Shown here: positions 31,590-54,116 of the stretch, one piece after another | Numbering within the stretch: position 1 is the stretch's first letter | How the letters are laid out: each line of letters begins with the position of its first letter | Source: an uncultured Chthonomonadaceae bacterium | GTDB lineage: Bacteria > Armatimonadota > Chthonomonadetes > Chthonomonadales > Chthonomonadaceae | DNA: 64,000 bases | NCBI GenBank assembly: GCA_963817895.1 | Contig: CAWFQB010000004.1 | Location: forward strand, 512,001-576,000 | Reading direction: 5' to 3' | Made by a program: the position numbers and the translations under genes | Notes under the pieces: model-generated | What the model was told of the DNA's origin: nothing | The model's database searches: none | What the model saw: the letters and a program-made list of their open reading frames with translations, nothing else

Positions 31590-33232
31590 ATGTTCACCGT
31601 GACGCATAACGAAGTCGAAGAACCTATCATAGATGTACAGCGCGTGGGGCAGATTGCGCGGCGACGCTGGAAAGTCTGGGCGTTGTTGGGGACGGGATTG
31701 TTCGGGGCGGGAATGGCGGGCGGGCTGTGCCTGCTGCCGCAAACGTTCACGTCTGTAGTCTCCATTTCCGTGCAGCGTCCGGGCGGGAGCAGTTCGCCGC
31801 TTGGCGGGCTGATAGGATTGGGCGGCGGGCAGAAAAGTTACGGCGGCGTGGTGAAGAGCCTGCGCATGGCGGGTGAAGTCGAGTCCGAAGTCGGCCTGCG
31901 ACAGTTGTACCGGCTGCCCTCCCCGGAAGAGGCCGCGCGCAGGTTGTCGAAGAGCGTCGGGCTGGACGACAACGCGGCGGAGGGCCTGCTGTACATCACG
32001 GTTGCCCTGCCCGCGCCGCCCCGCTATGCCGGTCACGCGAACGTGTTGCGAGACGGCGCGCGGCAGGCATCGGCGCGAGCGGCCAATGCGTATGCGGAAG
32101 CCCTGCGCCGGTATACGGTGGAAACCGACAACGACAAAGAGGCCGTGATGCTGCGCATGGCCGAAAACCAGATTCGGGAAGCGCGGGCAGGGTACGACAG
32201 CGCGATTGACCGCCTGCAAATGTTCGTGCATGAGCATCGCGGCGGGAATATAGCAACGGCGCAGCCCGCCGGGGATGAGAAAGTGGGGGGCGCGTCCACG
32301 CTTGCCGCCGCCGGGGGATTGGGCGGGCTGTACAGCGAGCGGGCGCAGTTGGAACAGGAGATTCAGACGCGGGAAGCGACCCGAACGGCGCGAATCGCCA
32401 TGCTGGACAGCCAACTCCATTCGCTGGCGACGCTGCCGGGAGAAGACCCGCTTCTGGCCGGGGCCAGAGCCGGGGAGCGCAGGGCGGATGAGGAACTGCA
32501 AGCCCTGCGCATCCAGTTTGAGGCCGAACATCCACAGGTGATCGCCGCGCAGGAGAAACTGCGGATCGCGCGGAGAGCGGGTTCGCCGGGAAGCGGACGG
32601 CCTGAAAAACGGCCTGACCAGTGACCGCGCCACCAATCTGGCGGAAACAAGCGGCCTGCGCAGCCGACTGGAAAAGGTTCGCGCGCAGATCGCCCTTGCC
32701 GAAGGGCAGGCGCAAACCGGGCGCGAACAAACGGCGGAACTGGAAAAACTGCGCAATGAAGCCATTCTCCGTCTGGAAGTGCTGAAAACCACGTCCACGC
32801 AGGTTGCCACGCTGCGGGTGCAAACGGCATCGAGCCAGAGCCGCATCCTGGTGATAGATCAGGCGCGGCCCGCAGAAGTGAGCAGTCCCGGCCTGATGCT
32901 TATCAGCCTGTTCAGCGGGTTTGCGAGCCTAGCGATTCTGCTTTTATGGTTGATAGCGGAATACGCCTTCGGCAAGCGCGAACCAATGCTTGTCGTTACG
33001 CCTCTTGCGCGGACTGCCCAACGATTTCGGCGCCACTGCGGTTATCAACATCCACGCGAACGGCGCTTACGGCAGCGGGGTGCATGTCAACACGGTTCAC
33101 GCCAACAACGGCGGGAGCGCGCGGAAGGAAACCGCAAGTGTCGCGTATGCCAACGGCACAAACGGGCATGGGACACATGCGGAACCCATGATGATTATCT
33201 CTGATTTAGACGCGGAAGGAACGAACGGATGA
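31590..33232 (+). CDS. Polysaccharide co-polymerase (Wzz/GumC-like), frameshifts near 32580 and 33000
   Basis: N-terminal TM, coiled coil, EHPQVIAAQ, ILVIDQARPAE plus second TM; no kinase domain. Confidence 0.75.
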
Positions 33233-34161
33233 AAGTTCTGGTGACGGGCGCGGCCGGGTACATCGGCAGTATTTTATGTGAGCATCTGCTTGCCGCAGGG
33301 CATGACGTGATCGCCCTTGACAGCCTGCTGTACGGCCAGGCGTCCCTGTTCCACCTGTGCGCCAATCCCCGTTTTGAATTTGTGCGGGGCGACGCGCGCG
33401 ACGAGAGCCTGCTGCGCCAACTGGTACGCAAAGCCGACGTTATTATTCCCCTTGCCGCCATTGTGGGCGCGCCCGCCTGCAAGCAGGACCCATACCTCAC
33501 CACGTCTATCAATCTCGACGCGGTACGCCTGCTCAACCGTCTGCGCTGCCCCGACCAACTGATGATCTATCCCACGACCAACAGCGGCTACGGCACACAG
33601 TCCGGCGACGAATATTGTACAGAGGAGACTCCCCTACAGCCAATATCACTGTATGGGCAGACCAAATCCGATGCCGAGGCCGACGTGCTGGCGTCCGAAA
33701 ACGCGATCACGCTGCGATTGGCAACCGTGTTCGGAACTTCGCCCCGGATGCGGCTGGATTTGCTGGTAAACCACTTCACGTATGCCGCTGTGACGGACAG
33801 CTACCTCGTCCTGTTCGAGAAAGATTTCAAGCGCAACTTCGTGCATGTCCGCGACGTGGCGGATTGCTTCCTGTATTGCATGACACACGCCGACAGCATG
33901 ACCGGCAGGCCGTACAACCTCGGTCTGGACGCGGCCAACCTGTCCAAAGAACAACTCGCGTTGAAGGTACAGGAACACGTTCCGCATTTCTACCTGCACT
34001 ACTCCGAAGTGGGCAGCGACCCTGACAAGCGCAACTACATCGTCTCCAACCAGCGCCTGCGCGAAGCCGGATTTGAAGCGCGGCACTCCCTCGACGACGG
34101 CATCCGCGAACTGCTCAAAGGCTACGCGATGCTGGGTAGAGGGACGTTTAAGAATATTTAG
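33229..34161 (+). CDS. Extended SDR, Cj1427-like GDP-D-glycero-D-manno-heptose C4-dehydrogenase
   Basis: GAAGYIGS, ADVIIPLAAIVGAP, YPTTNSGYG, RLATVFGTSPRMRLDLLVN, DPDKRNY match the Cj1427 motifs as I recall them; adjacent to hddA. Confidence 0.8.
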   Translation: MKVLVTGAAGYIGSILCEHLLAAGHDVIALDSLLYGQASLFHLCANPRFEFVRGDARDESLLRQLVRKADVIIPLAAIVGAPACKQDPYLTTSINLDAVRLLNRLRCPDQLMIYPTTNSGYGTQSGDEYCTEETPLQPISLYGQTKSDAEADVLASENAITLRLATVFGTSPRMRLDLLVNHFTYAAVTDSYLVLFEKDFKRNFVHVRDVADCFLYCMTHADSMTGRPYNLGLDAANLSKEQLALKVQEHVPHFYLHYSEVGSDPDKRNYIVSNQRLREAGFEARHSLDDGIRELLKGYAMLGRGTFKNI

Positions 34162-34166
34162 TTACA

Positions 34167-34261
34167 GGGAGTAGGTTGTAGGGAGTAGGCAAATACTATC
34201 TCGTTCGCGTTGCCATCTTACAACAAGAGGGCATTGCCCCTACTCCCTACAACCTACTCCC
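34167..34261. repeat. Heptamer-built 23-bp inverted repeat element
   Basis: gggagtaggttgtagggagtagg (34167-34189) and cctactccctacaacctactccc (34239-34261). Confidence 0.92.
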
Positions 34262-34276
34262 CAGGATGTACTTCTT

Positions 34277-35314
34277 ATGATTATCACCAGAACCCCCCTG
34301 CGCATCAGTTTCTTTGGCGGGGGTACGGATTATCCTGACCACTTTCGCGAACATGGCGGCCAGACATTAGGCGTCGCCATCAACTACTACTCCTACATTA
34401 CTGTGAAGTCGTTGGCTCCCCTGTTTGATTACGCGATCCGGGTTGGTTATCGGCGCACGGAACTCGTGCAGCGATTGGACGAAGTAGAGCATCCTTCGGT
34501 GCGGGAGTGTATGCGCTATATGGGCGTTGAGGGCAATGTGGAAGTGGATTACATCGGCGATTTGCCCGCCCGCAGCGGGCTGGGATCGTCGTCCTCGTTC
34601 ACGGTCGGCCTGCTTCACGCGCTTCACGCCTACAAGGGCGAACTGACCACGCGGGACCAGCTTGCGCGGGAAGCCGTGTATGTGGAACAGCAGATGATCG
34701 GGGAGCGCGTCGGCGTTCAGGATCAGTACCTGTGCGCTCATGGCGGCCTGACGCATCTCAAAATGCGCCGGGACGGGCAAATCAAGGCGCAGGCCGTACC
34801 CTTGCGTTCAAGCCGATTGGAAGATTTCCATTCGCATCTGATGCTGTTTTATACGGGCTTGCAGCGCAACGCGCACGACGTGTTGGACGAGCAGATCGCG
34901 AACACGCGGCAGGGAACCGTAACGGCTGACCTGCATCAAATGTCCGATCTGGTGGATCAGGGCATCGAGGTATTGACGAGTGAGCGGCCCCTGTCCGTCT
35001 TCGGCGAATTGCTGCACGATGCGTGGGAAATCAAGCGCGGCCTGTCCAGTAAAATCAGCAACGCGGATATTGACCGGCATTACGCCGAGGCGCGGCGGGC
35101 GGGCGCGGTGGGCGGCAAATTGCTGGGGGCGGGGGGCGGCGGGTTCCTGCTGTTTGTGGCTCCTCCCGAACGTCAGGCAGGCATTGCCCGCGCCCTGTGG
35201 CCGCTAAAGCAGGTTCCATTCCAGTTCGATTTTACGGGTTCCGACATCGCGTTCTATCATCCCGAAGGCCATCTGGTCACGCCGCAGGCCGTCACGCTGG
35301 AACGCGCCGCGTAA
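34277..35314 (+). CDS. hddA: D-glycero-alpha-D-manno-heptose-7-phosphate kinase (GHMP)
   Basis: MIITRTPLRISFFGGGTD, LPARSGLGSSS, GVQDQY, GGKLLGAGGGG. Confidence 0.9.
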   Translation: MIITRTPLRISFFGGGTDYPDHFREHGGQTLGVAINYYSYITVKSLAPLFDYAIRVGYRRTELVQRLDEVEHPSVRECMRYMGVEGNVEVDYIGDLPARSGLGSSSSFTVGLLHALHAYKGELTTRDQLAREAVYVEQQMIGERVGVQDQYLCAHGGLTHLKMRRDGQIKAQAVPLRSSRLEDFHSHLMLFYTGLQRNAHDVLDEQIANTRQGTVTADLHQMSDLVDQGIEVLTSERPLSVFGELLHDAWEIKRGLSSKISNADIDRHYAEARRAGAVGGKLLGAGGGGFLLFVAPPERQAGIARALWPLKQVPFQFDFTGSDIAFYHPEGHLVTPQAVTLERAA

Positions 35315-35351: not shown

Positions 35352-36257
35352 ATGAGCAATCAGATTGCTGACATGGTGGGAAAGACGCCCCGGCGAGTGG
35401 CGGGGGCGGCGAAACGGAAACTGGTCACGTCGCTGTGGCATGTGGAGCACTCGCTGGCGCGGCGAAAGGGCGGGGCGGAAATGGACGGGCGGCAAGCCTC
35501 GTGGGTGGCGACATTGGAAAATAAGCTGCCCAACAGCGGGCCGATTCCGGTTGACGCCGACGCCAACCCCGACACCATTATTCAGGCCGCGCAGGATGTG
35601 ACGAAGCGGCAAACGGCGGCTGAAGGCTTTGAGGGATTGGCGCTGGATGACGCGCTTGTGTACACCAACGCCTACAAGGACATGAGTTTCTTTCCGCTCA
35701 CACAGGCTATCGCGCAGATTTGCCGCGCGGCTCGGAACGCGCCCCTGACTTCCGTGCTGGAATTGGGCTGCGGCAGCGGACACATGCGCCGGTTCTTCGA
35801 GTCCTTCGGCGCGAACGATTATCTGGGCGTGGACGCCAATCCTATCGCGTTCCGGCATAGCTGCCATATCGTCGGGTACGAGGAACACTATCGCCTGCTG
35901 AACTTGCAGGAGGAGATAGATTTCGCCGCCGAATTCGATCTTGTCTGCACGTTCGAGGTTCTGGAACACATTCACGAGGCGAAACTGGACGGGATGCTGG
36001 CGACGATTCGCAATCATATACGCCCCAACTCGCTGTTCATCGGAACCGCGTCGCTGGTGGCGGATTTCGACGTGCATATCACGGTTCATCCCCGCGAATG
36101 GTGGCTGGAACGGTTCGCCAAACATGGCCTTGTGCCGCACCCCGATCAGGAGGGGGCGATCCGCCTGCTGGCGCGGAACCATCCCTTCAACTGGAACGGC
36201 AACAACACCAATCTGTTCGTGTTGAAATTGGCGGAGGGCGGCAATGGTCATGCGTGA
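35352..36257 (+). CDS. Class I SAM-dependent methyltransferase
   Basis: VLELGCGSG, YLGVD, FDLVCTFEVLEHI. Confidence 0.85.
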   Translation: MSNQIADMVGKTPRRVAGAAKRKLVTSLWHVEHSLARRKGGAEMDGRQASWVATLENKLPNSGPIPVDADANPDTIIQAAQDVTKRQTAAEGFEGLALDDALVYTNAYKDMSFFPLTQAIAQICRAARNAPLTSVLELGCGSGHMRRFFESFGANDYLGVDANPIAFRHSCHIVGYEEHYRLLNLQEEIDFAAEFDLVCTFEVLEHIHEAKLDGMLATIRNHIRPNSLFIGTASLVADFDVHITVHPREWWLERFAKHGLVPHPDQEGAIRLLARNHPFNWNGNNTNLFVLKLAEGGNGHA

Positions 36258-37218
36258 GGTTCGCGAATTCTTACAGGGGAAGCGGGTTCTCGTCACGGGC
36301 GCGAGCGGGTTTGTCGGGCGCAATCTGGTTCCCATGCTGGAACGGGTTGACTGCGAACTGCTCACGCCCACGCGCCGACAATATGACCTGCTGGAACAGG
36401 AGCAAATACGCGCCCTGCTTGCGGACACGCGCCCGGATGTGGTTCTGCACCTTGCCGGTTTAATCGGGGGCATCATGGCGAACAAGCAGCGGCCCGCCGA
36501 CTTTTGTACTCAAAACCTGCTGATGGGAACCCTGATGCTGCACGAATCCTATCAGGCGGGCGTCAGCAAATACATTACGCTGATGGGGGGATGCAGCTAT
36601 CCGGCCCACGCGCCCTCGCCAATTCGCGAAACCGAACTGTGGAACGGCTACCCGCAGCCGGAAAGCGCGCCGTACTCGCTGGCGAAAGCCATGAGCGCGG
36701 TGCAGGCGCAATCGTACCGTCGTCAATATGGATTCAATGCGGTCGTATTGGTTCCCGGCAACATCTACGGCCCACACGACAACTTTGACCTGACGAACTC
36801 GCACGTCATTCCCGCCCTGATACGCAAGTTTTCGGAAGCGCGGCGGGACGGACAGCGCGAAATCGTGTCGTGGGGAACGGGCCGGGCAACCCGCGACTTT
36901 ATCTACATCAAAGACGCCTGCGAAGCCATTCTGCTCGGCGCGGCCACGTACAGCGGCAGTGACATCATCAACCTGTCGTCCGGCAACGCGACCACGATAC
37001 GAACCCTTGTGGAAACCATTGCCGACCTGACCGGCTACCGGGGCGCAATCGTGTGGGACGCGAGCAAGCCTGAAGGCCAGTTGGAAAAAGGCTTCGACGT
37101 AACGCGGATGCGCGACATTTTGGGTTACGAGTGTCCCACATCCCTGCGCGAAGGTTTGAAACGCTCGATAGAGTGGTACGAGTGTAATCACGGAACGGCG
37201 CGTTTGATAGCCGCCTGA
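36250..37218 (+). CDS. GDP-L-fucose synthase-like epimerase/reductase
   Basis: GASGFVG, HLAGLIGGIMAN, GGCSYP, YSLAK, NIYGPHDNF, SHVIPALIRK, WGTG. Confidence 0.88.
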   Translation: MREVREFLQGKRVLVTGASGFVGRNLVPMLERVDCELLTPTRRQYDLLEQEQIRALLADTRPDVVLHLAGLIGGIMANKQRPADFCTQNLLMGTLMLHESYQAGVSKYITLMGGCSYPAHAPSPIRETELWNGYPQPESAPYSLAKAMSAVQAQSYRRQYGFNAVVLVPGNIYGPHDNFDLTNSHVIPALIRKFSEARRDGQREIVSWGTGRATRDFIYIKDACEAILLGAATYSGSDIINLSSGNATTIRTLVETIADLTGYRGAIVWDASKPEGQLEKGFDVTRMRDILGYECPTSLREGLKRSIEWYECNHGTARLIAA

Positions 37219-37303: not shown

Positions 37304-38431
37304 ATGCCCCAAACTGCCACCCAAACACAACCCATCTCCTTCTTCCAGAGCCACATTGCGCCCGAAGCCATCGAACTCGTCAACGAAGTATTGCGTTCCG
37401 GGTGGGTCAATGAGGGCGAAATGGTCAAGCGGTTCGAGCGTTCCCTGACGGCAACGCTTGGGATGCGCCATCCCGTCACCGTGAACAGCGGAACCGCCGC
37501 GCTGCATCTCGCGCTTGCGACCGCCAATGTCGGGCCGGGGGATGAGGTGATTTTGCCCGCGCAAACGTTTATGGCGACGGGACTGGCGATTCTGATGCAG
37601 CGGGCCACGCCGGTTTTTGCCGATATTGACCCGCATACCGGCAATATCGCGCCCGCTTCGATTGCATCCCGCATTACGTCCAAAACTCGCGCCATTATGC
37701 CCGTGCATTGGGGCGGCTATCCGTGCGAACTGGACGAAATAAACGCCCTTGCCGAACAGCATCATTTGACGGTTATCGAAGACGCCGCCCACGCGCTCGG
37801 CGCGACCTATAAAGGGCAGGTTGTCGGCAACATTTCGCGCTTTACGGCCTTCTCGTTTCAGGCTATCAAGCACCTGACGACGGGGGACGGCGGCATGTTG
37901 TGCTGCGCTTCGGAAGAGGACGAGAAGCAGGCGGTTATCGGCAGGTGGTTCGGCATTGACCGCGCCAACATGCAGAAAACCCCGGAGGGCGCGCGGGGCT
38001 ACGACGTGTCCACACTGGGTTACAAGTACCACATGAACAACATCGCCGCTGCCGTAGGGTTGGGCAATCTGGTAGATTTCCCTGCCCGCTTGGCCCGCCG
38101 CCGCCAAGTCGGGGCCATGTACCGGGAGCAATTGAACAACATACCCGGAGTCGAACTGCTGGAATGTAAGCCCGACCGCGAACACGCCTACTGGCTGTTC
38201 ACCCTGCTTGTGGAACGCCGCGAAGATTTCGCGCGCAAACTGGCGTCGCGGGGCATCCCGTGTTCCGTCGTGGATTTCGGCATTGACCGCAACTCGGTCT
38301 TCAGCGTAACCCGCCACAACCTGCCCGGTCAGGACGCGTTCGACGCCCACCAGATTTCCCTGCCCGTCCACGAGGGGTTGAGCGACGCGGATGTCCATCA
38401 TATCGTGGAAACGATTTGTTCGGGCTGGTAG
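37304..38431 (+). CDS. DegT/DnrJ/EryC1/StrS PLP sugar aminotransferase
   Basis: NSGTAALHLA, IEDAAHALG, FSFQAIKHLTTGDGG, GYKYHM. Confidence 0.92.
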   Translation: MPQTATQTQPISFFQSHIAPEAIELVNEVLRSGWVNEGEMVKRFERSLTATLGMRHPVTVNSGTAALHLALATANVGPGDEVILPAQTFMATGLAILMQRATPVFADIDPHTGNIAPASIASRITSKTRAIMPVHWGGYPCELDEINALAEQHHLTVIEDAAHALGATYKGQVVGNISRFTAFSFQAIKHLTTGDGGMLCCASEEDEKQAVIGRWFGIDRANMQKTPEGARGYDVSTLGYKYHMNNIAAAVGLGNLVDFPARLARRRQVGAMYREQLNNIPGVELLECKPDREHAYWLFTLLVERREDFARKLASRGIPCSVVDFGIDRNSVFSVTRHNLPGQDAFDAHQISLPVHEGLSDADVHHIVETICSGW

Positions 38432-38444: not shown

Positions 38445-39458
38445 ATGACGGCAACCGAAATAGTACGCGAAACCAAAAGCGAAGAATTTACGCTGCGCTG
38501 CGCCCGCAACGATGCCGACGACGGCGCAGCGTTTCTGCGAACTTTCCAATTCGCTGTATGCGCGAAAAGTGAATCTGGACTATTACCGCTGGCAGTTTTT
38601 CGGCGGGCCGTTTCCGAGCGCGTTGAGCATGGTGTACGCGCCGAACGGTGATCTGGCGGGTTGCTACGGATTTCACCTGCGACGGCTGGCCGGTTCCGAC
38701 GCGCATATCAGCATGGCGCTGGAAGCGATGATTGCGCCCGCGTATCAGGCGAAAGGGCTGCTGAAACAACTCATAGAACACGGCAGCGAACAGTTCGCTG
38801 CAGACCATCCCATCGGCATCATGGGCATGGCGAACGCGCGGGCGGGACGTTTGTACAAACTGAAAATGGGCTGGTCGGAAGTGGCCGGCTTGCAGGACTG
38901 GAACTCTTGCCGCCGACGCGCTGCCGCCTTCCGAACTCTGCCGAACTCCGGCTCATCCCCTTGACGGCATTGGGCGCGGAAGAAGACGCCTGTTTGCGCG
39001 CGGCTTCTGAGCGCCGGGGCAAAGTCGGGATCGGGTTGGCGCGTGACGCCGCGTTGTGGCAATGGCGGTTTCTGGACAATCCCCGCTACCGTTACGAACT
39101 GTTCCGGGCGGAGAAGCAGGGCGTTTTAGTCGGGCTGCTGGCGCTGAAAATGTTCGTTGATCCGGTAACAGATGAACGCTACGGAGACATTGTAGACATT
39201 GCATGGCGCACGGAAGACGCCGCTATTCTGCCCCATTTGCTGACCGGCGCGGCGAACCATTTGCGCGATCAGGGGGCGCAACAGATTTCCACATGGCTGC
39301 AAACCAACACGGAACTGGATGAAGCGGGGTGTAAATTAGGATTTCAGCCAACAAGCCGCCAACGAAATCTGGTATGCAAAGTTCTGGACACGAATTGCGC
39401 GTGGCTGGAAGACCCGCTGCGCTGGTGTACCACAATGGCCGATACAGAAATGTACTGA
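38445..39458 (+). CDS. Two-domain GNAT-fold acyltransferase, frameshifts near 38510 and 38900
   Basis: YYRWQF, MIAPAYQAKGL, RDAALWQWRFLDNPRYRY across three frames. Confidence 0.7.
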
Positions 39459-39459
39459 A

Positions 39460-39537: not shown

Positions 39538-41006
39538 TTGTCAATCGCTGCTGTTAATCAGGCCGGAAGGACGCGCTTTTTCGGGGGGCGTTCTTCCGGC
39601 TTTGTGGTAAATCTGGTGTCCGTTGGCGGCGCGACGGTGCTGATACGCCTGCTGAATCTGGTCATTCTCAGCTACGCGGGGCGCAAGCGCTTGGGCCGGA
39701 GAGTTTCGGCAAAATGGGGTTTGCGGCTGCCGTAATCGCATACGCCTCCATGCTGCTGTCGCCGGGAATGGGGCAGTGGGGAACGCGCAGCATTGCGCAG
39801 GATCGGGAACGCGCAGGCCGTACCCTGATTGAAATCAACGGAATTCAGTGTGTGCTGGCCTGCGCTGCTTATACGGGATTGGTTGTTTTGAGCGCCGGTT
39901 TGTGGCATGACGCTGTTTTGCGCCCGCTGATTTTGATACAGGGATTGTCGCTGTTTGTAGTCGCGCTGTCCGTAGATTGGGTGTTCAACGGCTTCGAGCA
40001 GATGCGCGTTCCCGCCCTGCTCAACCTGCTCAACTACGCGCTGCAAGTGTTGGGATATGGTTTGTGGGTGCATCGTCCCGAAGATTTGCTGCGGTTCGCG
40101 CTGATTGGATTGCTATGCAGCCTGTGTACAACCCTGCTCGGTTATGCCGCGCTGTTTCGCCGCCTGCGCCTGAAGCTTGTGCTGCCACAAATAAAAGAGT
40201 TGCGGCACACGCTGCGCCAATCCCTGCCGCTTGGCGCGACAATGGCCCTTGCCCTAGCCCTGCGCCACGCCACGACGCTGGGCGTGGAGCATGTCTGCGC
40301 CGCCGCCATGCTGGGCTGCTTCCTCGCCGCCTTCCGCATCTTTGAACTGACCACCACCCTGCCGAATACGCTTGTCGCCGTGTTTCTGCCGCGTCTGGCC
40401 CGACTGGTGGCGCAGGACAGGGCCGGGGCGCAACGGCAGGCGCAATGGTTCGCGCAAATCAACATGCTTCTCGGCTTCGGATTGGCGGCGATTGTGGCGG
40501 GGGAAGCGCCCGCCATCATTCAGCTTATCTATGGGGCGCGGTATGCCGATGCCGCGTTGCTGCTGCGCCTGATGGCGGTCGGGATCGTCTTTAATCATGC
40601 CGTGTTCGGCTACACCAACTGTCTGATTCCGTTCGGCAAGGATCGCGCCCTGCTGCGCTGTGTGGCGGTTTCCGCCTGTCTTGCGTTTGCCGGCAGCCTG
40701 TTTCTGGTTCCCCACTGGGGCGCAAAAGGAGCCGCGCTGACGATTGCCGGGCTGGACCTGCTGGCATGGGCCGCCACCCTGCGCGACTACCGCAAAACTA
40801 TCGGCCCGCTGAACCTGAGCGGCTGGACGGCGCCCCTGTGCGCCGGTTTACTTCTGCTTTTCGCGGCCCTCGCGTTGCAGCAAATGCGCGTCCCTCTGTT
40901 TGCGCGCCTGCCTGTATACTTGCTCTTCTATTTGCCTGTATTGAGTCGTTACAGGCGTGGATACGCCGGGTATCAACCTACAAGTGTTGAAAGCCCGCCT
41001 GCTTAA
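39538..41006 (+). CDS. wzx: Wzx-type polysaccharide flippase, frameshift near 39690
   Basis: LGPESFG-like motif, many TM helices, VFLPRLARL, LIYGARY, LVPHWGAKGAA. Confidence 0.85.
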
Positions 41007-42261: not shown

Positions 42262-43534
42262 ATGCAGGCGACAATTTTAGAAGCGAGCGTAGAATTTGTG
42301 CCGCAAACATTGCGCGTTCCGATGCGCCTGAGTTCCGGCGTGATTACCGAAATCACGGAAGCGCAAGCGGCAGTCACGGTGGAAGTGGATGGCAGGCGCG
42401 GGGTGGGGCGAGGAAGCATTTATCTCAGCGACGTGTGGGCGTGGCCCGACCCGATCCTCTCTCACGCGCAACGGGATGCCGAACTGCGCGGTTTGTGTAC
42501 GCGCATAGCACACGAATTGAAAGAACTTTGCGGAGATGAGGCCGCTCACCCGACGGAATTGGGATTGCGCCTGCATGACCGTCTTCAGCAGGAGACAGGT
42601 TCGTCCGTTCCGACCGTTCTGGCGCGAATAATGTGCGGCAGTCCGTTCGACGCCGCCATTCACGACGCGGTTGGAGTCGCTTTGGACCGTTCTGCCTTCT
42701 CCTTTTATAACGATCCTGTTCCGCTTCCTTCCGCCGACGCGTATTTTCCCGAAACCGGCGCGTGTGGGGCGGTTGCCCGAACGTTGCGCCCGAACCCGTT
42801 AAAGCAGTTCGACGCATGGCTGTGCGTGAGCAAGGATGATACGCTGGAACGCGACATCGCGCCCTGGATTCGGGAACGGAATTATCGCAGTTTCAAATTG
42901 AAACTGATGGGCAAGGACAGCGTAGCGGATGCCGCCCGCACCGTTGAAATTTATCGGGGCGTACAGGAATGGGGAGCCGTTCGCCCGCGCCTCTCCGTTG
43001 ACAGCAACGAGGGCAACCCCGATGCCGCAAGCGTCCTGGAGTATCTGCTGCGCCTGCAAGCCGACGCCCCGGACGTATTCGCCGCGCTGGAATATCTCGA
43101 ACAGCCCACAAGCCGCGACATTCTCGGTTCGCCGCAAAACTGGCGTGACGTTACCAAACTTAAACCCGTGATACTGGATGAGGGACTAACGGGAATGGAA
43201 CTGCTTCACGCGGTTCAGGAACAGGGCTGGAGCGGTATCGCGATTAAAACCTGCAAGGGACACAGTTTCTCGCTTGTCGCTGCTGCATGGGCGCGACAAA
43301 AGGGGCTTGAAGTCTGCTTGCAGGACTTGACCAATCCGGGCCTGTCCGCCATTCATTCCGCCCTTGTCGCCGCGCTGTGTTCCCACCCTGAACGGCATAG
43401 AACTCAATTCGCCACAATATACGCCGGACGCCAACGCCGATTGGCTGCCCCGTCTCAGCGGACTGTTCGCGCCCACGGATGGCCTGCACCGCCTGCCCGA
43501 TACCATCCCTGCCGGACTTGGTTCACAACTATGA
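42262..43534 (+). CDS. Enolase-superfamily (mandelate racemase/MLE-like) enzyme, frameshift near 43385
   Basis: FKLKL, SVDSNE, YLEQP, ILDE, AIKTCKG; tail in another frame ends with ATGA overlap. Confidence 0.82.
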
Positions 43535-44565
43535 GCGACGCTATGATACCCAACGAGGAGACGCTGGAAGACCTGCTCAGTACGCCCACGCCCGCCGTCA
43601 TCGAAATGATGCGGCAGATTGCAGGGCGATATTCTGGTGTTAGGCGTTGGCGGGAAAATGGGGCCGACGCTGGCGCGGATGGCGAAACGGGCGTCGGAGC
43701 AGGCGGGAACAAATCGGCGCGTTATCGGCGTGTCGCGGTTCAACAGTGGGGGTATGGAAGCGAAGTTGAACGCGCATGGCGTGGAAACCAAGCGCTGTGA
43801 CCTGCTTGATACCGATGCTCTCGCCGCCCTGCCGGACGCGCCCAATATTGTGTACATGGCGGGAATGAAGTTCGGCGCGACGGACAACGAGCCGCTGACG
43901 TGGGCCATGAACAGTTACCTGCCCGGTATGGTGTGCCAGAAGTTCAGACATAGCCGCATTGTGGCGTTTTCAACGGGCAACGTGTATGGCCTGACTGCCC
44001 CTCCAGACAGGCGGCTCGGTGGAAACGGATATTTGCGCGCCGGTCGGGGATTACGCGATGAGTTGTCTGGGGCGCGAACGCATTTTCGCGCATTTCAGCC
44101 GGACGCTCCAAATTCCCGTTGCCCTGATACGCCTGAACTACGCGGTGGAAATGCGCTACGGCGTATTGCTGGATGTCGCGCGGCGCGTCTGGTCAGGCGA
44201 ACCCGTCAATCTGAATATGGCAATGGCGAATGTGATCTGGCAGGCGGACGCCAACGCGCACAGCCTGCTTGCGTTCGCGCATTGCGCCCATCCGCCCTTT
44301 GTCGTCAACGTCACCGGCCCGGAAACCTTGAGCATCCGCCGCGTTGCGGAACAGTTCGGGCAGATGTTCGGCAAGCCTCCCCGTTTTGAAGGGCGAGGAA
44401 GCGACGCAGGCATTGTTAAGCAACGCCCAACTGTCTCACCATTTGTTCGGCTATCCCACTGTACCTGTGCAGCAGATCATGCAATGGACTGCCGATTGGG
44501 TACAGCGCGGCGGCCCTACGCTCAACAAACCAACGCATTTTGAAACGCGTGATGGCAAGTTTTAG
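43531..44565 (+). CDS. NAD-dependent epimerase/dehydratase-family protein, frameshifts near 43620, 44005, 44395
   Basis: ILVLGVGGKMGPTLA, MAGMKFG, FSTGNVY, YAMSCLGRER, KPTHFETRDGKF. Confidence 0.8.
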
Positions 44566-45631
44566 TCAGGAGCGAACATTGCGCCTTGATCCGAACATTC
44601 ATACCGCGTTGCAGCAGGGGCTTGTCATTCCGGCCAGTCCGCTGGCGTTGAACGCGGCCCGGAAATGGGATGAGCGGCGGCAGCAAGCGTTGTGGCGGTA
44701 TTATGCGGCGGCGGGAGTGGGCGGAATCGCGTTCGCGGTTCATACCACGCAGTTTGCCATCCGCGACTCGCGTATCGGGCTGTTTGAACCTTTGCTGTCC
44801 CTGGCGCGGGAGGAGATGACGCGACTGGATGCGGGCCGGGAAACGCCCCTTGTTCGCATCGCAGGCATTTGCGGCGCAATGCGGCAGGCGGCTGCGGAAG
44901 CCACCATCCTGCGCGAACACGGGTTTCATGCCGGATTGCTCAGTCTCGCCGCCCTATCCGATGTAAACGAAGAAGACTTGATTGCCCATTGCCAAACCGT
45001 TGCCGACATCGTTCCCATCATCGGCTTTTACTTGCAGCCATCCGTTGGCGGAAGGCTGCTTTCGTACCGGTTCTGGCGGCGTTTCGCGGAAATTGAAAAT
45101 GTTGCCGCCATCAAGATCGCGCCGTTCAACCGTTATCAGACGCTGGATGTGGTTCGCGCCATTGCGGAATCGGGGCGGGACGATATTGCCCTGTACACCG
45201 GCAACGACGACAACATCGTGCTGGATTTAATCACGCCGTACCGTTTTCAGGTGAACGGTAAACCGGTAGAACGGCGCATCGTTGGCGGTTTGCTCGGACA
45301 CTGGGCCGTGTGGACGCGCCGCGCTGTGGAACTGCTCAACGATTGTCACCACATAATAAAGGACGACGAGGCAATACCATCAGAGTTGCTTCGCCGGGGT
45401 GTGGAAATTACGGACTGCAACGCGGCCTTTTTCGATGCCGCAAACGGCTTCCGGGGCTGCATTGCCGGACTGCATGAGGTTCTGCGCCGTCAGGGATTGC
45501 TGGAGGGGATCTGGTGTCTGAACCCCTCAGAAACCCTCAGTCCCGGCCAACAGGATGAAATTGACCGCGTATACCGGGCGTACCCCCATTTGCATGACGA
45601 CGAATTTATAAACCGACATCGGGCCGAGTAA
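44552..45631 (+). CDS. Dihydrodipicolinate synthase-family (DapA-like) aldolase/dehydratase
   Basis: VIPASPLAL, AVHTTQF, GFYLQPSVGG, AIKIAPFNRY, LYTGNDD. Confidence 0.82.
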   Translation: MASFSQERTLRLDPNIHTALQQGLVIPASPLALNAARKWDERRQQALWRYYAAAGVGGIAFAVHTTQFAIRDSRIGLFEPLLSLAREEMTRLDAGRETPLVRIAGICGAMRQAAAEATILREHGFHAGLLSLAALSDVNEEDLIAHCQTVADIVPIIGFYLQPSVGGRLLSYRFWRRFAEIENVAAIKIAPFNRYQTLDVVRAIAESGRDDIALYTGNDDNIVLDLITPYRFQVNGKPVERRIVGGLLGHWAVWTRRAVELLNDCHHIIKDDEAIPSELLRRGVEITDCNAAFFDAANGFRGCIAGLHEVLRRQGLLEGIWCLNPSETLSPGQQDEIDRVYRAYPHLHDDEFINRHRAE

Positions 45632-47715: not shown

Positions 47716-48216
47716 TCAGTAGGGATTGTCAATGTCGTAGTCGTTGTTAGTTTCGATGAACTCCGGCACCTGATTGAGCGCGTCCACGGTGAAGCGCAGA
47801 TATTTATGCGGCGCGTGGATATTGACCGGCGTGGCGATCAGCACGTATACGGACTGTCCGGGCGCAATCGCAGGAACGTTGGCGTCGCCGATTTGCAGAT
47901 AGTTGATGCCCTCATACAGATTGTACGTCAGCTTGCACGGCGTCGAGGCGAGCGTACCCTGATTGTTGACAAGTACGCGGGCGTAGTTCGGGTTGTATTT
48001 GTTGCTGCGGTCGAAGTAGTCAGCCACGCCCGTAATACGCAGTTCCGCCAGATGCAGGCCGTCCGCCTGCGCCTGCGTCGGTCGCGCCAATGGCATCGCT
48101 AGCGGCAATGCCGCCAATCCACAAAGCAGGGCGCGTTTCACGCCGAGCCACATTTTGCCGACAGTGGTACGGGTTGGCGCGTTCATTGTCGCGCTGATAT
48201 TTGAAGTGTTTTTCAT
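47716..48216 (-). CDS. Secreted CARDB-like (Ig-fold) protein A
   Basis: Signal peptide; VNNQG, VPAIAPGQS, VDALNQVPEFIETNN. Confidence 0.75.
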   Translation of the reverse strand: MKNTSNISATMNAPTRTTVGKMWLGVKRALLCGLAALPLAMPLARPTQAQADGLHLAELRITGVADYFDRSNKYNPNYARVLVNNQGTLASTPCKLTYNLYEGINYLQIGDANVPAIAPGQSVYVLIATPVNIHAPHKYLRFTVDALNQVPEFIETNNDYDIDNPY

Positions 48217-48285
48217 CGTTAAAGATTCCTTTTCTTGTTCTGGAAAGTGGTTTCGCTCTGTCATTGAGCGTATTCAGGCTGCAAT

Positions 48286-48792
48286 TCAGGGAATAACAAC
48301 CGAGTAAGTGTTGTTGAATTCGTTCTTTTCGTCCACGTCGTTGTAGGTGTCCGCCTCGAACAGCGTGGTCGTGCCAGGCGCGAAGATCGGTGTGGACATA
48401 CTCACGGTCACATTGGCCGCTTCCCCCGGATGCAGCGCGGGTACAGGGTAGTAAAGCGAGTAGCTTCCAGCCCCCTTTGTGAACTGCACCCGCAGCGTGC
48501 AGGGTTTGGACGCGGTCATTCTCTGGTTCAGGATTTTAGGCCAGACATGGTAGGGGTCTGCCTGCCCGCCCGGCTTTGCCAGAACGATAACACCGAGGAT
48601 GGTCAGGTCAGGCCGCGTATCCTGCCTGATAATGGGCGGGGGCGCGGCGGTTTCGGCGACAGCGGCGGAGTGTAATGATGGGATCATCAGGGTCAATCCG
48701 GCTAGGCCGCACAGCAAGGCGCGTTTCATCGGCATTTTCAGGCCGGAGGTTGTCGCGTTCGTTTTCACAGTCACACTCTTCGTCGTATACAT
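48286..48792 (-). CDS. Secreted CARDB-like (Ig-fold) protein B
   Basis: Signal peptide; PDLTI, VPALHPGE, ADTYNDVDEKNEFNN. Confidence 0.78.
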   Translation of the reverse strand: MYTTKSVTVKTNATTSGLKMPMKRALLCGLAGLTLMIPSLHSAAVAETAAPPPIIRQDTRPDLTILGVIVLAKPGGQADPYHVWPKILNQRMTASKPCTLRVQFTKGAGSYSLYYPVPALHPGEAANVTVSMSTPIFAPGTTTLFEADTYNDVDEKNEFNNTYSVVIP

Positions 48793-49124
48793 GGTTAAAG
48801 CTTCCTTCCAGGGAATAGTGTTCCGCTCTGGACTGCCGCGCTCGTTTGCGTCAGAAACGTCCGGCGGGTCATTTGTCATGTCGCGCGTTCGCGTTGTTTT
48901 AGCATGGTAATCGTGTACTCCTTTGCCTTGCCTGTCGTTGTTCCGTCTGCCTTATCGAACTGCATTGGGTACAGGATACAAGCCTTGCGTCAGCGTAATG
49001 TCAGATTACCGTGATAACAGCGTTATATTTGGCGATTTTTATTTTTGATGCCAAGTGACACCAGAAAACCCCTGACCTGACGCATTAAGCGACCGGAAAG
49101 GGGTTGGGGTGAGGTTAAAACCTG

Positions 49125-51367
49125 CTATTCTTCCGAAGAGGAAAGCGAGAAAGGCAGAGCATCGGGGGGGAGTTGCGGCGTAATAAACGCCGTATCCGAC
49201 ATTTGGAATTTCAGCGTACCGCCCTGCGCGACTTCGGCATGGGACAGCCAGCATCGCTCCTGCTTTGCGCTATTCAACGTGACTTGCTGAACATAGCGGC
49301 GTTCGTCGGAAACATCCCCGCCTTCAATGGTCAGTTCACTGCCGTTTTCGAAGTGGAGAACGGCGCGGGGAAAGAGGGGCGCGCTCAGTGTCCATGAGGG
49401 ATGGCCGGGACATAGCGGATACAAACCCAATGCGCTCAGAATATACCACGCGGACATTTCGCCGTTGTCTTCGTCGCCGGGAAACACATCGGGCGTGTAC
49501 AACTCGTTCAGGACGCGGCGTACCCAATGCTGCGTGAGATCGGGACGCCCTGCCGCCGTGAACAGATACAAAGCGTGGTGTACGGGCTGATTGGAGTGCG
49601 CATACTGCCCGAAACCCGGCGCAGGCCATTTCGGTCATTTCGTGTATCTCAAAACCGTAATGCCCCACTTCAAAGCGCGGCGGCAGGGACAGCATCTGTT
49701 CCAGTTTGGCGACGAACGCTTCCGCGCCACCCATTAAAGCAATCAGTCCAGCAGGGTCGTGCGGAACCGCCCATGTAGACTGCCACGGCCCGCCCTCCAC
49801 GTAAGGGTCGCCCCACTGCCACTCATTGTACGCGGCCCATTCGCCACTTGCCTTACGCCCACGCATAAAACCAACGGACAAGTCATACAAATGCTTGTAG
49901 TTTTGGGAACGAGCGAGGAAAAGCTGCGCATCCTCATTCTTTCCAAGCGCGTGGGCAATCTGCGCGAGGCAGAAATCATCGTAAGCGTAATCCAGCGAAC
50001 GGGCAACGGATTCGTGATGATTATCTGAGGCGACATACCCTTTTTCAAGATAATCCGCGATGCCTATCCGCCCAAAGTTGCCTGCCGCGTCGCCGGCTTC
50101 AAAGGCGTGTTTGCGCATCCCGGCATACGCCGTTTCCAGATCGAACCCGCGTATGCCCCGCGACGGCATCGGCAAACACAGCGTCAATGTGCGTTCCCAC
50201 CATGCAGGCGCGATAACCCGGACTGGCCCACTGCGGAAACCAGCCGCCCTCGCGGTACGCCTGCGTCCAGCCCTCCAGTATTTCGTTTAATTGCGCGGGC
50301 ATCAGCAGGGCGAACAGCGGATAAACCGTTCGGTACGTGTCCCAAAAGCCGTTATCCGCGTACAACACGCCGTCATGCGCCTGCCCGTCGTAGGGGCTGA
50401 AGTGAACGGGCCTGTCGTTCGCGTCAAACTCGTGCCACCGGCGCGGAAACAGATGAACGCGGTACAGGCAGGAATAAAATACGCGGCGCTGCGCGTCCGT
50501 GCCGCCCTCGATCTGTATTCGGTTCAGCGCGTTTTCCCAAACCTCCTGCGCCTGCGCCCGGATTTCGTCAAAACCTACGCTCCCAATCTCGCGCTCCAAA
50601 TTACGTTCCGCCTGCTCGATGCTCAGAAACGATGTGGCGATCTTCATTTCCACACTTGCGCCGGTTTCCAGCGCGAACGTAACCGCCGCGCCCGCCCGCG
50701 TTCCCCTGCGCTCGCCTCCCTCATCACCCTCCTGAACAATGTCCCTGCTGGCGGCAAACGTCGCCTGTTCCGAAAACGGGCGGTCAAACGTCGCCACAAA
50801 ATAGCAGGCGAAGTTGTCCGGCGCGCCGCCCGTTTTCCCGCGCGTGTAGCCAACCACGCGATTACGTTCCGGCTCAATCCGTACCCACAACTCGCCATGA
50901 CACGGCTCAATCAACACGCGCGCCTGTCGGGTTGCGGGAAACTGAAACCGGAATACGGCGCAGCGCTCGGTGGGCGTGATTTCCAGCCGCGTGTCATACC
51001 GCAGCAAATCGGCGCAGAAATAATCGGGACGAAACTGGCTTGTTTCCGGCTGATACCCTGAAGACCGCGCCTCATTTCCCGGCAGCAGCGCGCCCACCTG
51101 CGGCATGACGACGAAATGGCCGTAATCTCCGATCCACGGACTGGGCTGGTGTGTGGCGCGAACGCCCTGCAATTTGCGCGCCCGCGCATCGAAGAACCAG
51201 TTGCCTTCCGCCGTTTGCGGACTCCAGTGCGTCATGCCAAAAGGTCGGGCAACGAGGGGAAAACAGTTACCCTGCGAAAATCCGAAGTGCGAATTGGCTC
51301 CCTGCCGCAAATTGACAAGGTTCAGCGGATCTGTTTCAGAGTTGGTTTGGGGGTTTGATGTAGACAT
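49125..51367 (-). CDS. GH92 alpha-mannosidase family, frameshifts near 50160 and 49615
   Basis: PFGMTHWSPQT, THQPSPWIGDYG, GFWDTYRT, MVGTH, SLDYAYDD, PGDEDNGEMSAWY. Confidence 0.9.
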
Positions 51368-51391
51368 GCCGTGTTGTTCCACACGGGCGTA

Positions 51392-51961
51392 TCAGGAACC
51401 TGCTTCATTTTCGCGCAAACAGATCATGTCGGCAGCCGCAGATAAATCGGGGAGGATGTAGTCAGGATGCGGGGCGGGAAACTCAGCAGCGTCAAACGCG
51501 GAAGTATGTCCCGTCAATACCAGAATGGCGCGGCATCCGGCAGCATGGGCGGCATGAATATCGCGGGGCGTATCGCCAATCGCATAGCACTGCGCCAGAT
51601 CGAAATGGTGTTCCCGCGCCGCTTGCAGCAACATTCCGGGCAGGGGCTTGCGGCACTCGCAGCCGTCATCGGGATGGTGCGGGCAAAAATAAATGGCGCG
51701 GATTTCGCCGCCCGCAACGGCAATCTCCGCCCGCAGTTTCGCGTGAATCAAATCCAGCGTTTCCGCCGTGAAGCGCCCGCGCCCGATGCCCGCCTGATTG
51801 GTGAACACAATCATCGGCCAGCCCGCCCGATGCAACCGCGCAAGGGCGTCCGCCACACCAGGCAGCAGTTCCAAATCTTCCGGGCGCGTGACATACCCGC
51901 CCAATTCCCGGTTCAGCACCCCGTCCCGATCCACAAACACCGCTCGCCCCAACTCGCTCAC
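51392..51961 (-). CDS. gmhB: D-glycero-D-manno-heptose-1,7-bisphosphate phosphatase
   Basis: FVDRDGVL, TNQAG, CPHHPDDGCECRKP, IGD. Confidence 0.92.
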   Translation of the reverse strand: MSELGRAVFVDRDGVLNRELGGYVTRPEDLELLPGVADALARLHRAGWPMIVFTNQAGIGRGRFTAETLDLIHAKLRAEIAVAGGEIRAIYFCPHHPDDGCECRKPLPGMLLQAAREHHFDLAQCYAIGDTPRDIHAAHAAGCRAILVLTGHTSAFDAAEFPAPHPDYILPDLSAAADMICLRENEAGS

Positions 51962-51981: not shown

Positions 51982-52117
51982 TAAACCACGGGGAACACGG
52001 GGGACACGGGGGAGAAAAACCGGGGAATCAAGAATCGAGAGCAACTGCTAAATACACGAAGTTCTTCCCCTGTCTTTCCCCTCTCCTCCCCGTGTCCCCC
52101 GTGTTCCCCGTGGTTTA
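51982..52117. repeat. 30-bp perfect inverted repeat built from 9-mer units
   Basis: taaaccacggggaacacgggggacacgggg (51982-52011) and complement 52088-52117, which includes the gmhA stop. Confidence 0.93.
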
Positions 52118-52700
52118 GCCTCTTTGCGTTTCCAGTTTGGCGCGTTCTTGCAGGGTGGAGAAGATCAGGTGCAGGAGGATCATGTGAACGTCTTCGATGC
52201 GCTGCATGTTGTCGCTTGCCACCACGATGCACTGCTGCGCGGCCTGCTTGAGTTTGCCGCCCGCAAAGCCCGCCAGTCCGAGCGTGGTGCGCTCCCGCTT
52301 CATTGGCGGCGACAATGCCGTTGATGATGTTCATGCTGTTGCCGCTGCCGCTGACGCCGAGAACCACATCGCCCGGTTCGGCCCAGCACTGTACCTGCGG
52401 CGTGAAAACGTTGTCCCAACTGGTGTCATTGGCCCACGCCATCATCAGCGGGGTGCAGTCGGACAGACAAAGGGTGCGCAGGGGCTTGCCGGCTTCCAGA
52501 TGAATGTTCTTCTGCATGTCGTTGACGATGTGGCTTACGCTGCTGCTGCTGCCGCCGTTGCCCATCAACAGCACGCGCTTGCCATCCCGCCACGCCGTCA
52601 GCAGCACATCCACCATCGGCTCCACCTGCGCCGCGTCAATCTCCTGAATGAGATTTTGCACATCCGCCAGATAATCACAAACAAACTTTTTCGTGTCCAT
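52115..52700 (-). CDS. gmhA: Sedoheptulose-7-phosphate isomerase (SIS), frameshift near 52290
   Basis: GNGGS, AWAND, GVSGSGNSMN, GFAGGKL, IEDVH. Confidence 0.88.
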
Positions 52701-52721: not shown

Positions 52722-52827
52722 CCTCACCCCAACCCCTCTCCTTGCCGCTCCTACGTCGCTAGGAGAGGGGCTAATGTATGTTGTAACTCCTCTCCTTGCC
52801 GCTCGTTCCTCACTTGGAGAGGGGCTA
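52722..52827 (+). repeat. Two tandem CCCTCACCCC-type hairpins
   Basis: cctcaccccaacccctctcctt...aggagaggggcta, then cctctccttgccgctc...ggagaggggcta. Confidence 0.82.
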
Positions 52828-52866
52828 TTCTTGAATGAGGGAAAGAGGCTGAATGGTTACTCTTTT

Positions 52867-52916
52867 CTCTGCATCCCTCTGTGAAACCTCTGTGTCTCTG
52901 TGCCTCTGTGGTGAAA
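52867..52916 (-). repeat. Orphan arm of 9-mer repeat family
   Basis: Reverse complement tttcaccacagaggcacagagacacagagg... Confidence 0.75.
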
Positions 52917-52919
52917 GTT

Positions 52920-54116
52920 TCACATTGCCGCCGCGCGTTCCACAATGGTTCGGGCGACGCTGAGGGACGCGGTTGCCGCCGGGGAGGGCGCATTGACCAC
53001 ATCCAGAATGTGCGGGCGCTCCACAATGGCGAAATCGTCCACCAGTTTGCCGTCCGGCGCAATCGCCTGCGCGCGCACTCCGGCGGGCGCGGGAACAAGA
53101 TGCCGCGCTTCAATTTCGGGAATCAGTTTTTGCAGGGCGCGGACAAACGCGGCTTTGCTGACCGAGCGGTGAAATTCGCCCATGCCCACTTTGCCGTACT
53201 TTCGCGCCAGTCGCAAAAATCCGCTATACGTCAGAGTTTGCCAGGCGTCTCGCAGATTCACATCGGTTTTGCGGTAGCCTTCCCGCGCAAGGGCGAGAAC
53301 CGCATTAGGTCCACACTCCACCCCACCGGCAATCATGCGCGTAAAGTGGACACCGAGAAAGGGGAAGCGGGGATCAGGCACGGGATAAATCAGGGCGCGG
53401 CACAGGTGTTGCGCAGTCGGTGTCAGCTCGAAATACTCGCCCCGAAACGGCACGATCTGCGCGTTCGGCTTGCCGCCGCCGAATTTCGCGACCCGGTCCG
53501 AGTGCAGACCGGCGCAGTTGATAACCAGACTGGCCTCGAAGTCCCCGGCTGTGCTTTGTACGACAACGCCCCGTTCACGGCGTTCGCATACTCCAGTACG
53601 CGCGTTCCGAGCAGGATACGATTGCCCGCCTCCTGTATACGCCGCGCAAGGCTCTGGCACACCGCCATGTAGTCCACAATTCCGGCTTCCGGCACATGCA
53701 CGGCCTGTATGCCCGCGCAATGCGGTTCCAATTCACGCAGACGTTCCGGGCCGATCATTTCACAGGCGATGCCGTTGGCCTGCCCCCGCGCATAAATATC
53801 GTTGAGACGGGGCAGTTCGTCCTCGCTGCGTGGCGACAATCACCTTGCCGCAGCGGTCGAAGGGAACATTTTCCTGTTCGCAAAACGCCTCCATTCGCGC
53901 TTTGCCCTCGCGGCATGTCGTCGCCTTCAGGGAACCGGGCTTGTAATAAATGCCCGAATGGAGAACGCCGGAATTGCGCCCCGTCTGGTGTTGCGCCAGT
54001 CCCGTCTCTTTTTCCAGAACCGTAATGCACCGGTCGGGATACTGTTGCGACAATTCATACGCCGTCGCCAACCCGACAATGCCGCCGCCGATGATAAGGG
54101 TGTGTGTGGTCGTCAT
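52920..54116 (-). CDS. lhgO: L-2-hydroxyglutarate oxidase (FAD), frameshifts near 53830 and 53575
   Basis: [77 protein letters not shown]. Confidence 0.9.

Follow-up and report, generated by a model that had tools for sequence, protein, structure and literature searches.

The short-chain dehydrogenase/reductase (SDR) Cj1427 of Campylobacter jejuni holds its NADH tightly, reoxidises it with 2-oxoglutarate (2-OG) and releases L-2-hydroxyglutarate (L-2-HG) (PMC10680097, PMC7949155, PMC9978623); nothing on the fate of this product was found in the available text of two of these papers (PMC10680097, PMC7949155). In Pseudomonas aeruginosa, WbpB likewise carries tightly bound NADH, converts 2-OG to D-2-hydroxyglutarate (D-2-HG) and is inhibited by D-2-HG; loss of the D-2-HG dehydrogenase (D2HGDH), an enzyme that also serves SerA, lowers the amount of O-antigen, and this effect was ascribed to product inhibition (PMC8651671). 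In serine synthesis, the unfavourable oxidation carried out by SerA is coupled to the reduction of 2-OG, after which the flavoprotein D2HGDH acts (PMC9504171, PMC8651671). The L-enantiomer is oxidised to 2-OG by LhgO; the E. coli enzyme is a membrane-bound quinone-linked dehydrogenase (PMC6265302, PMC8206213, PMC10726252), and the contexts known for lhgO are csiD-lhgO-gabDTP or lhgR-lhgO (PMC8206213). Here we describe a surface-glycan locus from an uncultured Chthonomonadaceae bacterium (assembly GCA_963817895.1, contig CAWFQB010000004.1) in which a gene of the lhgO family directly follows a predicted member of the Cj1427 clade.

The window, i.e., the whole stretch of DNA that was analysed, comprises 64,000 nucleotides (positions 512,001 to 576,000 of the contig). 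The genome to which it belongs (G000) is 81% complete, and a second genome of the same genus (G002) was used for comparison. Two SDRs are relevant for this work: SDR1 (33229..34161, + strand), in what we call cluster 1, and SDR2 (54117..55710, − strand, start approximate), in cluster 2. An earlier note on this DNA placed the ATG of lhgO (52920..54116, − strand) at 54116, abutting the TAA of SDR2 at 54117, and these coordinates were confirmed. SDR1 is approximately 19 kb from lhgO on the opposite strand, and SDR2 is the sole SDR that adjoins this gene.

Two SDRs of the Cj1427 clade

The motifs that had been noticed in SDR1 (IIPLAAIVGAP, YPTTNSGYG, SPRMRLDLLVN and DPDKR) are present, and those that SDR2 was said to share were found as GRTRFDLVVN and DHRNY. 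A comparison of both proteins with Cj1427 by sequence and fold places them in the same clade. For SDR1, a phmmer search of the PDB gave the Cj1427 structures 6VO6/6VO8 (E 5.5e-105, 354 bits) as the sole match at E<=1e-20, and its AlphaFold2 model (pLDDT 92) was superimposed by Foldseek on 6VO8 with a TM-score of 0.95 and 52% identity. The assignment of SDR2 required more than one sequence, since a search with the single partial protein was ambiguous (113 bits for a UDP-N-acetylglucosamine 4-epimerase and 109 bits for Cj1427). With a profile built only from SDR2 proteins (16 sequences), Cj1427 ranked first in the PDB with 194 bits versus 132 for the next protein; likewise, when the model of SDR2 from G002 was submitted to Foldseek, ranks 1 to 6 were all chains of Cj1427, with 31–32% identity. 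In a FastTree phylogeny of 291 SDR domains, a set that was seeded from SDR1 and SDR2 loci, SDR1, SDR2, the Deinococcus type SDR3 and a fourth type, SDR4, form one clade of 172 members (SH-like support 0.914). With a profile of 22 members of this clade, Cj1427 reached 372 bits, compared with 169 bits for the second-best PDB protein.

The residues R-x-D-x-x-x-N, a second arginine and D-x-R-x-Y are invariant across the clade. The catalytic loop reads T-N-S in SDR1 and Cj1427 and T-C-S in SDR2, and YxxxK is present in both SDRs. Neither of them has the T-D-E found in the RmlB-type protein of one of the loci examined (L329). The Asp/Glu pair of this motif is characteristic of 4,6-dehydratases; SDR2 lacks these residues, therefore its product should retain the C6 hydroxyl. 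By analogy with Cj1427, a chemistry based on bound NAD(H), with reduction of 2-OG to L-2-HG, is strongly indicated for SDR1 and moderately so for SDR2. The adjacent hddA and the single gmhA and gmhB genes of the genome fit a heptose substrate for SDR1, whereas the gene context of SDR2 points to a nucleotide sugar other than GDP-heptose. The intact SDR2 from G002 has 539 residues, including a hydrophobic N-terminal domain of approx. 170 residues that is found in 71 of the 80 SDR2 loci described below; this domain (55250-55710 in the window, 967-1479 in locus L042) gave no match in Pfam or NCBIfam.

The flavoprotein LhgO

The joined pieces of the window lhgO score 450 bits against the LhgO family model NF008726, and the intact copy from G002 scores 550, with a cut-off of 299. 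In the Drosophila L-2-HG dehydrogenase (L2HGDH), 2-OG is contacted by Ser88, His92, Tyr289, Leu299, His302 and Arg393 (PMC10726252). These positions were transferred through an alignment with 8W75, and equivalents of all six are present in the window pieces. From its sequence, the flavoprotein is thus predicted to have the substrate site of L2HGDH. These six contacts are invariant in 109 of 109 homologues, 7 of which come from a more distant paralogue group. No match to PF08943 (csiD) was detected in the 81% complete genome, with a positive control from E. coli, and no gene of the GlcD/D2HGDH type was found, with one query, in 87 loci.

Among 109 LhgO proteins placed in a tree, the copies that adjoin SDRs of the Cj1427 clade appear at about seven places and involve four SDR subtypes. 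The 21 copies linked to SDR2 fall in one subtree of 28, in which phyla are mixed and which lies apart from most copies of the family. Of the 102 copies sampled for context in the tree set, 62 are in non-sugar contexts.

Conservation of the SDR-lhgO pairing

The earlier note had proposed to test whether lhgO in polysaccharide loci co-occurs with Cj1427-like SDRs across genomes, and such a co-occurrence was found far above chance. The genome collection yielded 228 SDR2-like places, of which the best 80 were kept; in these, lhgO lies downstream of SDR2 in 21 (20/70 among loci with at least 1.5 kb downstream), and in 20 of these 21, one of which is the G002 locus, it is the immediate next gene; a generous chance expectation is 0.4. 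According to the record labels, the loci with lhgO correspond to 10 of 12 from Armatimonadota, 7 of 20 from Acidobacteriota and 4 of 14 from others. The same 80 loci carry degT in 59 cases and a phosphoglycosyl transferase gene in 36. These results show that the SDR2-lhgO pairing is conserved. When the search was started from lhgO, a clade SDR was the next gene in two of seven metagenome loci. The gene also adjoins three subtypes of the clade besides SDR2, including the SDR4 and SDR3 types in loci L146, L148, L317 and L324. Among plasmids, the best 8 of 211 lhgO records comprised four non-sugar contexts and four from Deinococcus with the order rfbF-lhgO-SDR3-rfbC-oxidoreductase and overlapping codons; in Solidesulfovibrio plasmid pDMC1 (one of the four opened among 29 SDR1 plasmid matches) an SDR1-type gene, a kinase gene, degT and lhgO are followed by a SIS gene. 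The Deinococcus cassette, rfbF-lhgO-SDR-rfbC followed by an oxidoreductase gene (SAF), was seen in loci L230-L232, L235 and L297-L304.

Whole genomes were also compared in four samples in which both genes were searched and the centre genome was excluded, with a true lhgO taken as one of about 500 bits or more; the clade searches scored 23-35 candidates per genome, and the tallies take in the unpublished genomes G133, G158 and G238. A true lhgO is present in 23 of 65 clade-positive genomes versus 34 of 225 clade-negative ones, a pooled odds ratio of 3.4, to be read with the caution that related genomes are not independent and that p-values from these tests overstate the association. Both genes are at most 7 kb apart in 11 of the 23 genomes that carry both, where at most 0.14 would be expected; by phylum, these pairs account for 2/7 in Acidobacteriota, 1/5 in Armatimonadota, 8/8 in Deinococcota and 0/3 in Chloroflexota. 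As a control, in 15 lhgO-bearing genomes of Acidobacteriota, two of the eight clade SDRs were near lhgO versus 2 of 145 other PF01370 proteins, and one of these two is the immediate sister of the clade.

A proposed role for LhgO

We consider it probable that LhgO is an accessory recycler that clears the L-2-HG produced by the SDRs, and not an obligatory shuttle. Two C4-dehydrogenases of the Cj1427 clade would serve a single surface-glycan system, each of them oxidising a nucleotide sugar with enzyme-bound NAD+; the bound NADH would be reoxidised by 2-OG and L-2-HG would be released. SDR1 would oxidise a GDP-heptose, made via GmhA, HddA and GmhB, at C4 for subsequent reduction or amination. As suggested by the gene order, the membrane-anchored SDR2 most likely yields, with no dehydration, a 4-keto sugar that retains its C6 hydroxyl, and an ArnB-like DegT aminotransferase, a WecD-like acetyltransferase and a phosphoglycosyl transferase may convert this product into a linker sugar on the lipid carrier. 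LhgO, presumably co-transcribed after SDR2, would return L-2-HG to 2-OG; in this way product inhibition would be relieved, the oxidation pulled, and carbon and electrons salvaged. Where an amino sugar is made, 2-OG is already regenerated from glutamate by DegT, therefore the role of LhgO in that branch would be the removal of L-2-HG, and only in the reductase branch would it close a 2-OG cycle. The closed 2-OG/L-2-HG cycle envisaged in the earlier note is thus upheld in part: the clade SDRs, the L2HGDH site and the gene linkage agree with it, while the DegT branch is already balanced for 2-OG without LhgO. It is also proposed that lhgO was recruited more than once, and that elsewhere it has often been lost or substituted by L2HGDH.

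Evidence against this role and alternative explanations

Several observations weigh against an accessory recycler. As assembled, the window lhgO is broken near 53825 and 53585, and SDR2 has frameshifts near 54527 and within the N-terminal portion; gmhA is also frameshifted, near 52287. In G002, lhgO, SDR2 and gmhA are all intact and in the same order (89–92% identity for lhgO and SDR2, with the lhgO reading frame intact at 89%). Since these copies are intact, and since breaks are likewise present in rpoC of G000 and in rpoB of G002, indel errors in the assembly are the likely cause of the frameshifts. That lhgO is a true pseudogene was considered and judged unlikely, because rpoC and many unrelated genes of the window are broken as well. 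In addition, SDR2 is only 31–32% identical to Cj1427, and lhgO is missing from 59 of the 80 SDR2 loci, including all of those labelled Deinococcota (0/18), Chloroflexota (0/11) and Planctomycetota (0/5). For 50 of these 80 loci, the search was extended to the genome; 47 of the genomes, many incomplete, had no adjacent lhgO, and among these 14 had a true lhgO elsewhere, 16 had only a distant paralogue, and 17 gave no homologue at E<=1e-60. No lhgO occurs within 8 kb in any of 75 viral SDR1-type loci (L150-L224). The SDRs of these viral contigs are 44–56% identical to SDR1 and are mostly located beside GDP-fucose-synthase-like genes, sometimes also with hddA or degT; in viral searches the lhgO query yielded no locus and the SDR2 query one. 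In Chloroflexota the association is also absent at the genome level (lhgO in 3/19 versus 10/51). Finally, lhgO occurs in four sugar loci (L049, L312, L329 and L330) whose examined stretch contains no clade SDR. In L312, lhgO precedes rfbC-degT, and in the near-identical L329 and L330 it lies between a UXS-like gene and rfbC. In L049 (5524-10446, genome G029) it is the last gene after those for a Gfo/Idh/MocA protein, an acetyltransferase, DegT and an epimerase; the Gfo/Idh/MocA protein resembles UDP-N-acetylglucosamine 3-dehydrogenase, with a score under the cut-off, and if this enzyme is WbpB-like its D-2-HG product would be mismatched to an L-specific recycler. The patchy distribution that emerges from these data fits an accessory recycler better than the alternatives, namely a required shuttle, a passenger gene or a flavoprotein with another substrate.

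The proposal that stood at the outset was the most far-reaching one, i.e., that the locus encodes a dedicated and required closed shuttle, without which keto-sugar formation would stall. The tight adjacency, the high proportion of Armatimonadota-labelled SDR2 loci with lhgO (10/12) and the adjacency of both genes in all eight Deinococcota genomes that carry them speak for it. Nevertheless, the majority of clade loci lack lhgO, DegT provides 2-OG in the amino-sugar branch, and in vitro 2-OG alone suffices for the turnover of Cj1427 (PMC10680097); we regard a required shuttle as very unlikely. The word dedicated is not supported either, given the absence of the gene in 59/80 SDR2 and 75/75 viral SDR1 loci and the lack of association in Chloroflexota. 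A different explanation is that a housekeeping lhgO, devoted to metabolite repair, was linked once to SDR2 and since then hitch-hikes on a mobile glycan cassette. This agrees with the window copy being the only lhgO in G000, with the location of all 21 SDR2-linked copies in one subtree, so that the pairing may be a single event, with the prevalence of non-sugar contexts (62/102) and with the sugar loci that have lhgO and no clade SDR. It is improbable in our view, since adjacency to clade SDRs arises at about seven places of the lhgO tree, with four subtypes and varied gene orders, the Deinococcus lhgO is inside an operon with overlapping codons, and, in Acidobacteriota, other SDRs occur near lhgO at roughly the low frequency expected by chance.

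It could also be argued that SDR2 is an epimerase or a dehydrogenase that uses free NAD, and that the flavoprotein acts on another glycan-linked 2-hydroxy acid or serves only SDR1-type partners. The T-C-S loop of SDR2, in place of the T-N-S of Cj1427, and the near-equal scores of a 4-epimerase and Cj1427 in the single-sequence search would agree with the first part; for the second part, lhgO is also found beside UXS/RmlB and Gfo/Idh/MocA genes, and the invariance of the six contacts in all 109 homologues means that they do not distinguish between close substrates. Against it, profile and fold searches clearly rank Cj1427 first for SDR2, the acidic residue of 4,6-dehydratases is missing, and the DegT encoded in 59/80 SDR2 loci needs a released keto sugar, which an epimerase would not supply. 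From these data, such an alternative has a small chance of being correct, and recycling of L-2-HG by LhgO is preferred.

Organization of the two clusters

Cluster 1 is encoded on the + strand. SDR1 is followed by a gene for an HddA-like heptose-7-phosphate kinase of the GHMP family (34277..35314; NF049969 E 1.2e-32, under the cut-off, and Pfam GHMP), a class I S-adenosylmethionine-dependent methyltransferase (35352..36257; Pfam Methyltransf_23) and a GDP-fucose-synthase-like epimerase/reductase (36244..37218; NF047922 287 bits, under the cut-off) whose top PDB matches are GDP-L-fucose synthases and which is a candidate consumer of the 4-keto heptose. These genes are followed by a first DegT-family aminotransferase (37304..38431; PF01041, with sugar aminotransferases as PDB matches), a GNAT-like acyltransferase that is split over two frames (38512..39458; weak PF00583 match, kept in G002) and a Wzx-type flippase (39714..41006; PF01943). 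No clear hddC was found in the window.

Cluster 2 is on the − strand. Upstream of SDR2, it encodes glycosyltransferases of families GT4, GT4 and GT2 together with a membrane protein that is Wzy-like by position only (59042..63667; Pfam and synteny), an initiating phosphoglycosyl transferase of the Bac_transf family (58250..58966; PF02397), a WecD-like GNAT N-acetyltransferase (57251..57898; NF008212 E 3.9e-24, under the cut-off) and an ArnB-like C4 aminotransferase of the DegT family (55830..57035; PF01041, with ArnB as top PDB matches, E 1e-98). Downstream of lhgO, the order gmhA-gmhB reported earlier was verified; these genes encode a GmhA-like phosphoheptose isomerase (52115..52700; SIS_2 and gmhA matches) and the heptose-bisphosphate phosphatase GmhB (51392..51961; NF006506 188 bits, cut-off 178, the sole match in G000). 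Short repeats, of types that occur 157, 168 and 29 times in the genome, are present at 59518, 59558, 61998 and 52896; two of these repeat types are within open reading frames (ORFs) called as glycosyltransferases, to which they contribute an identical short peptide.

G000 has one copy each of gmhA and gmhB, which are located in cluster 2, and the only paralogue of hddA, a gene of cluster 1, is 31% identical to it; therefore, the heptose pathway is divided between the two clusters. In G002, the glycosyltransferase genes of cluster 2 follow directly on cluster 1, in the same direction and approximately 350 bases past the flippase gene, and degT-SDR2-lhgO-gmhA-gmhB is located on a separate contig. 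In a Fimbriimonas locus (L135), one strand carries an SDR1-type gene, hddA, a nucleotidyltransferase gene, gmhB, gmhA, a fused phosphoglycosyl transferase-WecD gene, degT, one further gene, SDR2 and lhgO; in locus L137, both SDRs and lhgO are within 8 kb. Clusters 1 and 2 thus look like a single surface-glycan locus that has been broken up. Given that the heptose genes are split between them and that L135 and L137 unite them, it is fair to relate SDR1 to lhgO despite the 19 kb that separate them. The fusion in L135 (3703-5115) is an ORF of 470 residues, and the corresponding genes are separate in the window. In another member of the family (G022, L057:5891-10741), approximately 2.5 kb separate lhgO from gmhA-gmhB, and the two lie on opposite strands; no SDR is nearby, and the arrangement is possibly a remnant of the same locus.

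Between the clusters, frameshifted enolase-like, epimerase-like and dihydrodipicolinate synthase-like genes (42262-45631), probably for sugar-acid catabolism, are missing from the matching stretches of G002. The stretch 47716-48879 (− strand) encodes two small paralogues that have signal-like N-termini and resemble each other in a C-terminal motif, and a GH92 glycoside hydrolase gene extends over three frames immediately after gmhB (49125-51382, − strand).

Novelty and implications

The earlier note regarded this coupling as a candidate new system; the same logic is in print for the D-enantiomer, in WbpB and D2HGDH (PMC8651671). In a literature search that did not extend to supplements or to the primary Cj1427 papers, no paper was found that connects LhgO with Cj1427-type enzymes or with glycan loci. 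What was already known is therefore the concept of D-form coupling, and what appears to be new, with no publication found, is the L-form with LhgO inside a sugar operon. The pairing would provide a fate for the L-2-HG of Cj1427-type enzymes and a reason for the presence of lhgO in glycan loci that lack csiD, and it would extend the bacterial sources known for L-2-HG by nucleotide-sugar oxidation. It also predicts a reaction for many proteins labelled just as epimerase/dehydratase, including the membrane-anchored form of 71/80 loci, and a stereochemical rule that is testable, i.e., L-makers would be accompanied by LhgO and D-makers by D2HGDH. A possible application is a simple regeneration system for making keto sugars and rare sugars with enzymes.

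More tentatively, the Cj1427 clade may represent a broad and mostly unrecognised group of 2-OG-dependent nucleotide-sugar oxidases, and a widespread bacterial source of L-2-HG, in which the LhgO of the operon passes electrons from the synthesis of glycan precursors to the respiratory chain. Four or more subtypes would belong to it, including a membrane-anchored one that starts glycans with a 4-amino sugar in which the C6 hydroxyl is retained, and an adjacent lhgO might mark new ping-pong sugar dehydrogenases even outside the clade.

Comparison with known systems

The likeness to Cj1427 (MlghA), Cj1430 and Cj1428 of C. jejuni resides in the fold and motifs of SDR1 (52% identity), in gmhA, hddA and gmhB, and in a reductase gene that follows. 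It differs in that here a GDP-fucose-synthase-like enzyme and DegT follow, and in that SDR2 is distant and membrane-anchored. A cupin 3,5-epimerase of the RfbC/Cj1430 type was not detected in the 81% complete genome at E<=1e-8 with one Deinococcus RfbC query. The Deinococcus cassette shares with the Campylobacter enzymes the logic of oxidation, epimerisation and reduction, but on a CDP-sugar, and presumably resembles StrQ/StrP/StrX/StrU of streptomycin synthesis. A relationship with septacidin SepI was also considered and then dismissed, as this enzyme is FAD-dependent (PMC9978623).

Linker sugars are made by modules of the PglF/PglE/PglD/PglC type, composed of a membrane-anchored SDR, an aminotransferase, an acetyltransferase and an initiating phosphoglycosyl transferase. 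The SDR2 module is similar to them in composition, but SDR2 itself is Cj1427-like and lacks the dehydratase residues. The window LhgO passes the family cut-off and shares the six 2-OG contacts with the enzymes of E. coli and P. putida and with Drosophila L2HGDH, whereas its context is nucleotide-sugar synthesis and csiD was not found in the genome. The SerA/D2HGDH couple differs from the locus in that it belongs to primary metabolism and uses the D-enantiomer. A close parallel is with WbpB and D2HGDH: in both cases a sugar dehydrogenase would be recycled by 2-OG and a flavoprotein would return 2-HG to 2-OG. WbpB oxidises C3 and yields D-2-HG, whereas here the SDRs are predicted C4-dehydrogenases, L-2-HG is the expected product and the recycler, of the LhgO family, is encoded within the sugar operon. 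Judged from its sequence, the locus thus appears to work like WbpB-D2HGDH without being a member of that system, given its SDR partners and its recycler of the LhgO family.

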